This document shows positions 9,543-21,475 of a stretch of 64,000 nucleotides of DNA, one piece after another (position 1 is the first letter of the stretch; each line of letters starts with the position of its first letter). The notes below the pieces were generated by a model. That model saw only the letters and a list, made by a program, of their open reading frames with translations, made no database searches and had not been told where the DNA came from. The position numbers and the translations under genes are program-made. The DNA comes from Bacteroidales bacterium (GTDB lineage Bacteria; Bacteroidota; Bacteroidia; Bacteroidales; P3): contig JAGCZH010000031.1 of assembly GCA_017960475.1 (NCBI GenBank), positions 5,758 to 69,757 on the forward strand. The letters are read 5' to 3'.

Positions 9543-9559
9543 TTTCGTGGATTGTAACA
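9543..9559 (+). repeat. Left copy of the island-flanking direct repeat TTTCGTGGATTGTAACA
   Basis: Matches 21459-21475 at 16 of 17 positions in the same orientation. GATAATTA follows both copies (after 20 nt here, after 4 nt at the right copy). Confidence 0.7.
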
Positions 9560-9611
9560 TGTTTTTTCCAAAAAAATAAGATAATTAGAAACATTTTATA
9601 AGAAAAATTAG

Positions 9612-9619
9612 TATATTTG
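9612..9619 (+). promoter_or_regulatory. TAnnTTTG -7 element (tatatttg) upstream of the first island gene
   Basis: Exact consensus match, 78 nt upstream of the ATG at 9697 and inside the island just after the left direct repeat. Confidence 0.35.
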
Positions 9620-9696
9620 CACATTGTATATAAGTGGAAGAATGAGTGTGATAATGATTGCTAAATATTCATAATGAGATATTTCGGATAATTATT

Positions 9697-10872
9697 ATGA
9701 ACAAAAAACTAAAATTCTCCTGGGGGCATATTGTCGCATTTGTTGCTATTATTTTTGTTGCATTTGTCTCTTTTATTGGACTGTCTTTTCTTACTTCAGG
9801 TAAGTTCCTTCTTGCTGGATTTGGCAGTTTGTTGGTTGTGTTGATTCTTTTAATATGCTTTCTTGGTGCTCAGAGACTTAAAGCTACCGACTGCAATTTT
9901 GAAAAAAGCATTAAAAAAGAACGTATTCTTGTTTTTGTTACTCCTTTCATTTTTGTAGTGGTGATGCTCCCATTTACTCATTTTTGGACGGTTCACTCGC
10001 ATCAAGACCAAGTAATTGGTGACTTTTCTAAGGCAGTAGCCATGTCCGAAAATGTCTTTGTAGAGTACGAAAAATATGCCAACGTTAGAATCAACAAATA
10101 TCAGTCTATGTTATTAGATGTCGTTGACCATCGTGATTCTAACTATAGAGATTATGCTGCTTGTGGTTTTTCTGATATTTCCAGTACAAAGAAATCATCA
10201 CAGGTCTTTAATTCCAAGCCACCAGCAAAAAAACACTCTGACAATAAAACAAGCCAAACAAACGCATACAAGCCTTCTAAAGCCGACTCGTTGATGATCA
10301 ATACGATGGTTCAGACCCTTAAAACTCAGCTTCTTTCACATAACTACGATATATTGAGTAGCGAAGCTAGAAAATGGATTGCTTCTGCCAGTAAAGGAAC
10401 AACAACGTGGAATGTTTTTCTCATCGGAAATATGAGACAGATTGATACAGCCCTCTCGCAATGGCAACGTCATCTGGTATCTTTCGCCGACAGGAAAATA
10501 TCCAACGAGGAGTTTGGTGATAAGAACAAAGTGGAACCCTTCGATAATGTGAGTACCACAATTGCCCAGGCTCGTGCAAAGCTTCATGGTGTAAACGACA
10601 TATATCGAGACTTCAAATTTCCATGTCTAATTGCTATCATCCTTATGGCTGTTGTTTATGCTGCATTATTCCTGCCATATTACATACAACCGCGCAACAC
10701 TAAAGTCCGTTTCGATTTTTGGGGCAAAAATAATTCAGGCGAATCCGACATTTATGACGATGAGCGGTCCTCAAATAATCCCAATATCAAAACTGATAAT
10801 GTTTGTGAGTTGGATTTTGACAATGTTTCGCCGTCTGACGAAGAAAGCGACTGGACCTCTATCACTTTTTGA
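9697..10872 (+). CDS. Island gene 1: four-TM membrane protein, no recognised family
   Basis: ATG at 9697 (MNKKLKF). There are three N-terminal hydrophobic helices, a roughly 210-aa helical/polar loop, a fourth TM ([20 protein letters not shown]) and an acidic C-terminal tail [16 protein letters not shown]. Confidence 0.6.
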
Positions 10873-10895
10873 TAATTTTCTTTAATCATCTAGAT

Positions 10896-11477
10896 ATGTT
10901 TTTGAAAAGGCGAATATTAAAAGATCCTTTTTCTTTTTCTGACGAAGAATTGGCCGATGCAATCCGTAAAGGTGTTGTGACTATTTATGAGCTCAGCAAG
11001 GCTGGTCTCACTCTTATGAGAAAAAGAAAGATCGAGAATCTCCTAAAACAAGAACCACAACAAGAGTCAATTCTCACTTCCTCCACTTATTCAGATTCGA
11101 ATTCCGAGCCTGAGCCGGAACCGATACCCGAGCCTGAGCCAGAACCAATACTTGTACCTGAGCCGGAACCGATACTCGAGCCTGAGCCAGAACCAATACT
11201 TGTACCTGAGCCGGAACCGATACCCGAGCCAGAACCAATACTTGTACCTGAGCCGGAACCGATATCCGAACCTGAGCCGGAACCGATACTTGTACCTGTG
11301 TCGGAACCGATACCCGAGCCCGAGCCGGAACCGATACCAGAGCCTGAGCCGGAACCGATACCCGAGCCCGAGCCGGAACCGATACCCGAGCCTAAGCCGG
11401 AACCAGAACCAAAACCTGAGTCTGAGGTGGACCCTGACCTTGATTTTTCTTATTGGACAAATGGGTTGGATAATTGA
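10896..11477 (+). CDS. Island gene 2: Pro-Glu repeat ([10 protein letters not shown]) spacer protein
   Basis: ATG at 10896 (MFLKRR). It has a roughly 55-aa N-domain, then about 105 aa of (E-P)n-I-[PL]-[V] repeats, then a short acidic tail [10 protein letters not shown]. No TM segment. Confidence 0.6.
11106..11426 (+). repeat. In-frame tandem DNA repeat encoding EPEPEPIP / EPEPILVP units
   Basis: Alternating near-identical 24-nt units gagcctgagccggaaccgataccc and gagccagaaccaatacttgtacct recur across the interval. Confidence 0.85.
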
Positions 11478-19513: not shown

Positions 19514-19515
19514 TT

Positions 19516-20682
19516 ATGAAATACTCAAATAAATATCAACAACTTGTAGATTCCGCCAAAAAGTTCAGCAATGATATAGTCGATGCTCATTCCTATGTTT
19601 TGGCTATGTCATCGGACTATTCTCAGCTGTCTCGTGCTGCTAATGATGTGAATTTTGCCCACAATTATAGCACTGCGATTCAGGACTTGAACAACATTAT
19701 TGCCGAATGGGATCTCAAGCGTCCAATCTCGAAGCTTAAGGAGGTAATCGATTCATTTGTTTCTGTAATCAAGACTTATGATGCAGCCATTATCACGCTA
19801 GAGGACAAATTCAAGAACCTTGTACGTCTTCCTGATCGCCACAACAAGGGAAACGTATGCAATACCTTGAAAAAATATATCGGCAATGTCGGTTCGGTTC
19901 ACTTTAAGGATGTTGAAAACGAAACTAAAAACGGAATACCTGCCCTTCTGAATTTGATAGACACACTGCTGGGTGATTTTTCGAAAGAAAGAGCCGATGT
20001 TATGTTAAATAACGAAATGGCCAATCAGCTTATAGATAGGCTTGAAGAAATCAAGGGTTGGCCAGATAGGTATAAGAAACAAGAGTTTGTGGCCAAATGT
20101 GAGTCAATCTTGTTTCAAGTTCTTCAGAACCCATGCAAAATTAACCCACAAGCTGATCAAAATAAATTATCGGCTGTGAAGAAAGGCATGGAGGGTTTCA
20201 AACAAATGTTTGAAAAGGAGATAATTGAAAACAAGAAACTTTTGACAGAACTTAAGAATAATAATAGTAGGGTATGGGAACACGATTACAAAAACCTGTC
20301 AAAGATGTTGAATCGGGAATCCATAGCGCACCTACAATATTCTCCGTCGGAATTAAAGAATCAGTACCTTTCTGCAAAGAACGATAAAAGTAGTTTCATC
20401 TCAGATATGGAAAACATACTTAGTCCTCGTATCAAAAAGAAATTCTCGGACCGGATTGACAAACTCTGTAATAGTTGTGTGACAAAGGACTTCGCCGAGA
20501 AACTGAAGCATGATATCGAAACGGACAAGAGCGATAACGTTAAGAAATGGCTTAAGTGGATTGGCATTGGTGTAGGTGGAGCTGGTGCGGTGATTCTAAT
20601 AATCAATTTTTACGAATATATTTTGATAGGAGCGCTGATATTAGGTGTTGTATGGTTCCTCCTTAGTATAATATTTGACTAA
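19516..20682 (+). CDS. Island gene 8: helical protein with a C-terminal double-TM tail anchor
   Basis: The ATG is 2 nt after the ATPase stop. About 340 aa of helical sequence, then WLKWIGIGVGGAGAVILIINF-YEY-ILIGALILGVVWFLLSIIF. Confidence 0.6.
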   Translation: MKYSNKYQQLVDSAKKFSNDIVDAHSYVLAMSSDYSQLSRAANDVNFAHNYSTAIQDLNNIIAEWDLKRPISKLKEVIDSFVSVIKTYDAAIITLEDKFKNLVRLPDRHNKGNVCNTLKKYIGNVGSVHFKDVENETKNGIPALLNLIDTLLGDFSKERADVMLNNEMANQLIDRLEEIKGWPDRYKKQEFVAKCESILFQVLQNPCKINPQADQNKLSAVKKGMEGFKQMFEKEIIENKKLLTELKNNNSRVWEHDYKNLSKMLNRESIAHLQYSPSELKNQYLSAKNDKSSFISDMENILSPRIKKKFSDRIDKLCNSCVTKDFAEKLKHDIETDKSDNVKKWLKWIGIGVGGAGAVILIINFYEYILIGALILGVVWFLLSIIFD

Positions 20683-20722
20683 TTAGTAACATGTTTTCTA
20701 TTAATCTTTAAAATAATTTATT

Positions 20723-21421
20723 ATGGCAGATCAGCAGCAATTAGAGTATGAGCTTGAAGCTCTTCATGAATTAAATAGATTCGTGGTTGAACAATTCTGT
20801 GACGAATTCGCTTTGGCAAAAGCCAATATGCAATCGTATATCATTTCTATGGCGGGTAGTGGTGTCCCTTTTGAGCAATGTCAGAAATTTACTAATGACT
20901 ACTACAAAGTAGACGAGGACAATTTTAGGGACTTGTATAATAATGTAATGTACAATGATCTTTCAAGAATTAATGAATATGCCATTCATATTCTTCGGGA
21001 GATAGAGTCCATTACAGGCAGTGGCCATGAATCGTTCAATTTGGTTTATCCAAGAACAGATATCAATGCAACGAAAAGCGCCGAAGTCAGGTCAAACGAT
21101 CTTCAGGACTATCTGGTTCAGTGTGAGGCAGTCTGCGATTTTATGGATTTTATTACAGATATGGTGCAGAACTTAATACGTGTAGTGAACGATTATACAA
21201 AAAGCCGTGAAAAGATGCTTTGGAAAGGAGTCCCTCGTCAAGTGGTTGACGACTATTATTCTCGCTGCGCCCCTGAGGATGTGAAAATTGTGGGTAGAAT
21301 CTCCGACCATCTTAAAGAAGAATATATGATACTGGAGAAACTGTATGATAAAATTGTCGAAAGCCTTACAAGCCTTAATATTAATTCCTATCGCCATCCT
21401 AAGAAGATTATCCAGTTCTAG
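20723..21421 (+). CDS. Island gene 9: tandem WXG100-like helical-hairpin protein (inferred)
   Basis: Internal duplication: MAGSGVPFEQCQKFTNDYY (residues 43-61) against LWKGVPRQVVDDYY (residues 166-179). W167-K-G169 is a literal W-x-G. Both motifs sit about 40 residues into a roughly 100-aa helical half. Confidence 0.5.
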   Translation: MADQQQLEYELEALHELNRFVVEQFCDEFALAKANMQSYIISMAGSGVPFEQCQKFTNDYYKVDEDNFRDLYNNVMYNDLSRINEYAIHILREIESITGSGHESFNLVYPRTDINATKSAEVRSNDLQDYLVQCEAVCDFMDFITDMVQNLIRVVNDYTKSREKMLWKGVPRQVVDDYYSRCAPEDVKIVGRISDHLKEEYMILEKLYDKIVESLTSLNINSYRHPKKIIQF

Positions 21422-21458
21422 TATTATTACTCCAGATTTATTGAAAAAAATAAAAACG

Positions 21459-21475
21459 TTTCGCGGATTGTAACA
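21459..21475 (+). repeat. Right copy of the island-flanking direct repeat TTTCGCGGATTGTAACA
   Basis: 16/17 identity with 9543-9559. It lies between the last island gene (stop 21421) and the recJ start (21571). Confidence 0.7.

Follow-up and report, generated by a model that had tools for sequence, protein, structure and literature searches.

What separates recJ from its neighbouring permease gene in one gut/rumen Bacteroidales genome, and how did it come to be there? The locus lies in a 64,000-nt stretch of DNA (the window) from a Bacteroidales bacterium placed by GTDB in Bacteroidota; Bacteroidia; Bacteroidales; P3 (NCBI GenBank assembly GCA_017960475.1, contig JAGCZH010000031.1, positions 5,758 to 69,757 of the forward strand). 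An island of nine genes sits between the two flanking genes and is bracketed by a pair of short direct repeats. An earlier note, made from the letters alone, had proposed that the repeats are an attL/attR-type duplication of a target upstream of recJ, and two island-free sites, L077 and L058, support this proposal. Because these two conspecific strains without the operon carry the 17-mer once, we conclude that the paired 17-mers are almost certainly the duplicated target (17–19 bp) of one insertion event. The features on which the argument turns are as follows.

9543 to 9559, + strand: left direct repeat, attL-like core, TTTCGTGGATTGTAACA; the alignments with the empty sites L077 and L058 stop exactly at 9559
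21459 to 21475, + strand: right direct repeat, attR-like core, TTTCGCGGATTGTAACA; the empty-site match begins 2 nt earlier, at 21457 (CG)
9560 to 21458, + strand: island insertion, with 11,899 bp between the repeats; L077, L058 and the sister species lack it
8144 to 9517, + strand: left flank, ABC-2 permease gene, which adjoins recJ in the empty sites
21476 to 21570, + strand: native recJ upstream region, intact to the right of the insertion and including a genus-conserved promoter block
21571 to 23403, + strand: right flank, recJ

Direct repeats and empty sites

The repeats stand where the earlier note had placed them, in the same orientation on the + strand, and agree at 16 of 17 positions. 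One base separates them (position 6, T versus C), and this difference is present in every island-bearing contig. The left copy begins 25 nt after the permease stop (9517) and ends 137 nt short of the start codon of gene 1 (ATG, 9697). The right copy follows the stop of gene 9 (21421) by 37 nt and precedes the recJ ATG (21571) by 95 nt. At 0–2 mismatches the 17-mer has only these two copies in the 2.45-Mb genome, and allowing 3 mismatches adds seven unrelated sites. The repeats are thus confined to the two borders, as the earlier note had stated. Neither of the two outcomes that it named as refuting its reading was observed: the motif is not scattered through the genome, and island-free relatives do carry it (see below). 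The left repeat is identical in four other island-bearing contigs, and the right repeat is identical in L059 and L060.

We compared the two borders (140 and 149 nt) with shuffled sequence, taking as the statistic the longest direct or inverted match with at most one mismatch. Mononucleotide shuffles reached a match of 17 nt in 0.4% of cases and first-order Markov shuffles in 0.6%, a chance probability of about 0.005. There are no terminal inverted repeats at the island ends better than those in shuffles (p = 0.33). A longer, degenerate duplication around the repeats was rejected, as similarity beyond them does not exceed that of shuffles. The earlier note had also remarked on GATAATTA, which does start 20 nt past the left repeat and 4 nt past the right one. 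The pairing is a coincidence: the right word belongs to native recJ-upstream DNA and the left word to island DNA. The DNA 3′ of one repeat resembles that 3′ of the other no better than shuffled sequence does (p = 0.6), and on this ground GATAATTA was rejected as part of the repeat. Also rejected was a common intergenic element, since the genome holds two copies and the database hits are single, taxonomically scattered and set in unrelated flanks. Their number in GTDB and IMG/VR is at the level expected by chance for 16 specified bases in 596 Gb.

For the empty sites, RecJ homologues were gathered first, and then the sequences sharing a 90% cluster with the window's own RecJ. L077 is an NCBI contig (JAILGD010000147.1, GCA_024697115.1) from a conspecific genome, with a RecJ identical at 606 of 610 residues. 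In it the permease gene is joined directly to recJ by a 137-nt spacer with a single copy of the motif, TTTCGAGAGTTGTAACA. By blastn, positions 1–9559 of the window match L077 350–9905 at 98.1% identity, and positions 21457–33411 match L077 9887–21833 at 98.0%; the 19 nt of L077 shared by the two alignments (9887–9905) align to both repeat copies. The second empty site, L058, is a 2.1-kb Logan contig, also conspecific, with an identical permease protein. It reads ...GCG TTTCACGGATTGTAACA AATTGATAATT..., with one motif copy, and runs straight on into recJ. Its left flank is 99.7% identical to the window up to position 9528, or 99.3% when a cluster of substitutions at the junction is counted. The single 17-mer that the earlier note had predicted for the permease–recJ junction of island-free relatives is therefore present in both.

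Homology of the empty sites to the window breaks at the outer repeat edges, 9559 and 21457. The inserted unit is 11,916 bp, the island plus one repeat. It entered the 137-nt permease–recJ spacer just upstream of the recJ promoter, which was left intact. The same attL and attR occur in other assemblies (ENA ERZ28655167, ERZ27256983 and ERZ28653829; Logan SRR12529104 and SRR32285420). As independent assemblies, made from several samples, agree on the junctions, the island structure is no assembly artefact. Within the species the island is a presence/absence polymorphism.

The empty state is ancestral, because recJ adjoins the permease gene in the sister species too and, with the permease gene at most 1.5 kb upstream, in 16 of 29 genus relatives. 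In the sister species (L062–67), which is also empty and carries AATAGCGAGTTGTAACAAATTGATAATT, the RecJ protein is 98% identical and the DNA flanks are 80–86% identical. Neither empty allele in our species is an excision product of the present island, because each keeps its own flank haplotype; both look like never-occupied sites. Island and empty alleles have probably been exchanged by homologous recombination in the flanking genes.

Candidate routes of integration

The island does not appear to encode the means of its own integration. None of its nine proteins matches a recombinase or transposase family (Pfam, NCBIfam and PADLOC at E ≤ 0.1, PHROGs at E ≤ 0.01). A hidden or decayed recombinase was rejected, with no family match and intergenic gaps (≤137 nt) that are too small. 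The window contains no tRNA gene and gave no match to Rfam. The genome has four tyrosine-recombinase genes, all on other contigs, at C8:14711-15229, C36:144055-144516, C19:42725-43195 and C36:42950-43414, and this contig has no PF00589 match. The tRNA scan, the family searches and the PF00589 search are all in line with the earlier observation that integrase, transposase and tRNA genes are absent.

We favour att-type integration catalysed in trans as the most likely mechanism, at about even confidence. A circular form with one copy of the core would recombine with the chromosomal copy (attP × attB giving attL and attR) in a conservative, site-specific reaction. The recombinase would be of the tyrosine type and supplied in trans, not encoded by the island, which would thereby be a recombinase-less passenger resembling a cis-mobilizable element (CIME). 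This mechanism is preferred because of the 17–19-bp duplication, the lack of terminal inverted repeats or further similarity, the single copy and the lack of a transposase. A length of 17–19 bp is above the 2–14 bp usually duplicated by transposases and within the usual range of att cores. The four tyrosine recombinases elsewhere in the genome were counted in its favour.

Several findings weigh against att-type integration in trans. The target is an AT-rich intergenic site, neither a tRNA gene nor the 3′ end of a gene, and the core has no clear inverted-repeat architecture. The two empty alleles, each with its own flank haplotype, give no sign of excision. No attP-like junction, circular form or cognate integrase-bearing element was found in GTDB species genomes or IMG/VR, where the matches to the 17-mer are, respectively, single and scattered at chance level and 10 in number and unrelated. 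No plasmid or phage carrier was found, only low-complexity Pro-Glu matches and distant FtsK proteins. Finally, 4 of the 14 nt to the left of attL are unlike both empty alleles, against a background of 0.3–1%, and these differences are not predicted by a simple model of attB-left plus core.

We scanned JGI metagenomes with a 21-mer made of the right half of the core and the native right flank, a query unable to detect an attP junction; it returned one sister-species empty site and three unrelated sequences, with no other cargo at the core. The genome itself has no further core copy that would mark a cognate integrative and conjugative element (ICE) or integrative and mobilizable element (IME), and the database collections are incomplete for the species.

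The differences at the junctions deserve a closer description.

9529 to 9548, no strand: substitution cluster by the left junction, 7 differences in 20 nt relative to L058
Repeat start in L077 (empty): TTTCGAGAG...
Repeat start in L058 (empty): TTTCACGGA...
Repeat start in the island allele: TTTCG(T/C)GGA...

Between the window and L058 there are 6 differences in 1,932 nt of left flank, 7 within 9529–9548 and none in 9549–9559. On the attR side, the first 45 nt or so (21476–21520) contain one substitution and two changes in homopolymer length, and identity follows. Three of the four left differences shared against both empty alleles turn the native GTTTGCG into GATTGTA, a copy of the GATTGTA found 14 nt downstream, inside the repeat. 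Positions 5–9 of the repeat differ among L077, L058 and the island allele. On the simplest reading, the spacer haplotype that carries the island is old and diverged, or the island came with short donor flanks. A diverged haplotype with recombination in the flanks would account for the spread of the island, and not for the first origin of the duplication.

These junctions lend some weight to an unlikely alternative, entry by short-homology or homologous recombination with no dedicated site-specific enzyme. It could have proceeded by Campbell-type integration of a circle at the 17–19-nt identity, or a ready-made island with short diverged flanks could have been imported from a related donor, in which case the repeat would be older and made elsewhere. 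The substitutions fall within about 30 nt on the left and 45 nt on the right of an insert whose flanking genes are 99–99.7% identical to the empty alleles, and they look like donor or old-haplotype DNA linked to the island. The 12 nt directly left of the repeat are a diverged homologue of native DNA, matching it at 8 of 12 positions. With both empty alleles naive, alleles can be exchanged within the species only by way of the flanks. The spacer also behaves as a hotspot, in that its genes vary from one species to another in the genus. Import, however, explains spread and not how a 17–19-bp duplication first arose, and no donor lineage was found: among 5.8 billion proteins, gene 7 has no homologue above 48% identity outside the species. 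Moreover, efficient RecA recombination usually needs more than 17 nt. A little less probable than recombination is a true target-site duplication, in which a transposase-like or casposase-like enzyme acting in trans would make staggered cuts 17–19 nt apart and the gaps would then be filled. Fill-in duplication leaves just the pattern seen, with a single target copy where the site is empty and a pair where it is occupied, and duplications of similar length are made by a few systems (casposons, 14–15 bp; IS1634, variable in length, 17 bp and more). Unlike these long-duplication transposons, the island lacks terminal inverted repeats, encodes neither a transposase nor Cas1 nor a polymerase, and is present once in the genome. 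Nor is it a DDE transposon or insertion sequence: there are no inverted repeats and no transposase, and the duplication, at 17–19 bp, exceeds their short one of 2–14 bp. Fill-in copies would also start identical, yet position 6 differs in every island-bearing contig, a weak objection given that a later mutation is possible.

Two remaining explanations seem to us improbable, the second far more so. The island might be a self-contained operon cassette of a new mobile kind. It would be inserted and excised by a host chromosomal recombinase at the 17–19-bp non-tRNA site upstream of recJ, or else one of its unassigned proteins, possibly together with the FtsK/EccC-type ATPase, would be a novel integration enzyme that produces long target duplications. 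It is very hard to maintain that the 17-mers have nothing to do with the arrival of the island, whether as copies of one regulatory operator or as a chance match. Both copies lie about 50–90 nt upstream of candidate −7 boxes (9612–9619 and 21550–21557), and the island promoter could now respond as well to a factor that binds upstream of recJ. Yet the empty sites have a single copy, homology breaks exactly at the repeat edges, the motif is nowhere else in the genome, the chance probability is low, and conservation of the motif upstream of recJ extends no further in the genus than the sister species. Because a second copy is seen only in the presence of the island, the operator suggested in the earlier note is excluded as the origin of that copy.

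Returning to att-type integration in trans, the closest known counterpart is the CIME, defined for decay products of streptococcal ICEs and IMEs (PMC5704250). As in a CIME, the island keeps attL-like and attR-like repeats of one chromosomal target and lacks integration and transfer genes. It differs in having no known ICE or IME partner of matching att specificity and no integrase or conjugation remnants, and in that the target is intergenic, upstream of recJ, and not a tRNA gene or gene end, in a metagenome-assembled genome of a gut/rumen Bacteroidales. Islands inserted by tyrosine recombinases (lambda-type, and NBU-type of Bacteroides) likewise have a perfect or near-perfect core of 13–25 bp duplicated at both ends, one site in each genome, and relatives in which that site is precisely empty. 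Our repeats match the single copy of the empty sites as theirs do. In contrast to these, the island has no integrase of its own, its target is neither a tRNA gene nor a gene end, and no arm-type or inverted core-type sites are recognisable.

The island may also be likened, in a dependence on host recombinases, to integrative mobile elements exploiting Xer (IMEX), such as the gonococcal genetic island and CTX-type phages, which use host XerCD. Both are recombinase-less and flanked by direct repeats of a chromosomal site. The repeat here is 17–19 nt with no two-arm symmetry, in contrast to the 28-bp dif-like site of IMEX. A dif scan recognised no site with the E. coli and B. subtilis patterns, which are heterologous and may not be those of Bacteroidales. 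Membership in the Xer-dependent IMEX is unsupported. Cumulative GC skew climbs to about 50 kb (window ~49000–51000) and then drops, 28–40 kb from the island; this turn suggests a replication terminus or a strand switch.

The recJ spacer and the island genes

The promoter upstream of recJ and the predicted promoter of the island operon are located as follows. The Bacteroidota −7 promoter consensus is TAnnTTTG.

21550 to 21557: recJ −7 box, TAATTTTA, within the genus-conserved promoter block
9612 to 9619, + strand: candidate Bacteroidota −7 promoter box of the island operon, TATATTTG, inside island DNA and predicted from sequence

The block AAAAAGTCGTAnnTTTACnnCCAG followed by ATGAAAGAAAAA (window 21520–21582) is kept across the genus at all recJ loci examined (L001–L030). 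When this species is compared with its sister, the DNA of the coding flanks is less conserved than the 100 nt that precede recJ. The 17-mer is confined to these two species. A conserved recJ operator was rejected, as the motif is absent upstream of recJ in the genus except in the sister species, where 12 of 17 positions match and the right half is exact, and in L015, which has a 13/17 look-alike. In several genus relatives (L016, L018, L020, L023, L025 and L028) the DNA just ahead of the conserved recJ promoter, 100–300 nt from recJ, contains long palindromic or tandem repeats rich in GC, such as GGTTGTTTAACGGTTGTTTAACGG...CCGTTAAACAACCGTTAAACAACC.

The permease–recJ spacer is variable in the genus, and other species carry other genes there (L073–L076, L215–L217, L222–L224). 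These include an AhpC/TSA gene, an AraC regulator with three different upstream contexts, and a gene for a signal-peptide protein of about 385 amino acids, with or without a PD-(D/E)XK (Rpn-like) gene.

The nine island genes are co-oriented, with gaps of at most 137 nt, and form a single operon present once in the genome. GC content is 40.6% in the island and 46.8% in the genome. The island is 99.7–100% identical in four independently assembled contigs (L054, L055, L059 and L060).

9697 to 10872, + strand: gene 1, 391-aa multi-pass membrane protein, no family match
10896 to 11477, + strand: gene 2, 193-aa protein with a Pro-Glu repeat spacer
11600 to 12844, + strand: gene 3, P-loop GTPase-like protein; weak DO-GTPase1/2 match (E = 9e-4), below the Pfam cut-off
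12869 to 14839, + strand: gene 4, 656-aa bitopic membrane protein, no family match
14928 to 15830, + strand: gene 5, 300-aa protein with an N-terminal hydrophobic segment, no family match
15902 to 16690, + strand: gene 6, 262-aa protein with an N-terminal signal-like segment, no family match
16748 to 19513, + strand: gene 7, 921-aa FtsK/SpoIIIE ATPase of the EccC/EssC (type VII secretion) type; Pfam PF01580, E = 6e-26
19516 to 20682, + strand: gene 8, 388-aa helical protein with C-terminal hydrophobic helices
20723 to 21421, + strand: gene 9, 232-aa soluble protein, no family match

Only genes 7 and 3 could be assigned to a family (gene 3 below threshold); the other seven have no assignment. 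Gene 7 matches TIGR03924 (EccCa, E = 6e-37) at the domain level, below the equivalog cut-off, and its sequence matches in the PDB are EccC and YukB. Gene 3 has no sequence match in the PDB; DO-GTPases are described in PMC7159879. The Pro-Glu array of gene 2 varies, being 16 aa (two 24-nt units) shorter in the otherwise near-identical L055 (12753–13286). The island has the EccC/EssC-type ATPase of a type VII-like system, and the family search recovered no substrate or membrane component: at E ≤ 0.1 no island protein has a sequence-family match to WXG100-type substrates or to EccB/D/E or EssA/B components.

The gene-7 homologues at 35–48% identity have unrelated surroundings, in some cases with vWA, PP2C and Ser/Thr kinase genes after them. 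Directly 3′ of every gene-7 homologue examined is a gene of 393–409 aa, which resembles gene 8 by length and position alone. In L081 (10001–22741) and L084 (8147–17975), gene-7 homologues of 44–47% identity are followed by genes of about 394–409 and 312–314 aa that hold the places of island genes 8 and 9, and then by vWA, PP2C phosphatase and Ser/Thr kinase genes; their accessory set differs from island genes 1–6. Related islands were rejected as a second test case, as no convincing border repeats were seen in them and no conspecific empty site was found for L078. Rejected too were the genus homologues G099, G077 and G101, which have gene 7 alone in common with the island, at 24–28% identity.

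An accessory operon with defined boundaries

Recombinase-less islands bounded by target-duplication repeats are already well known, and this one is a well-supported case, ordinary in kind. The boundaries of the island are fixed to the base, and the nine-gene operon centred on the EccC/FtsK ATPase is accessory, recently shared DNA in a gut/rumen Bacteroidales species. Strains with and without the operon on near-identical flanks are a natural pair for probing its function, and the locus offers a defined 17–19-bp site for studying the mobility of recombinase-less islands in Bacteroidales.

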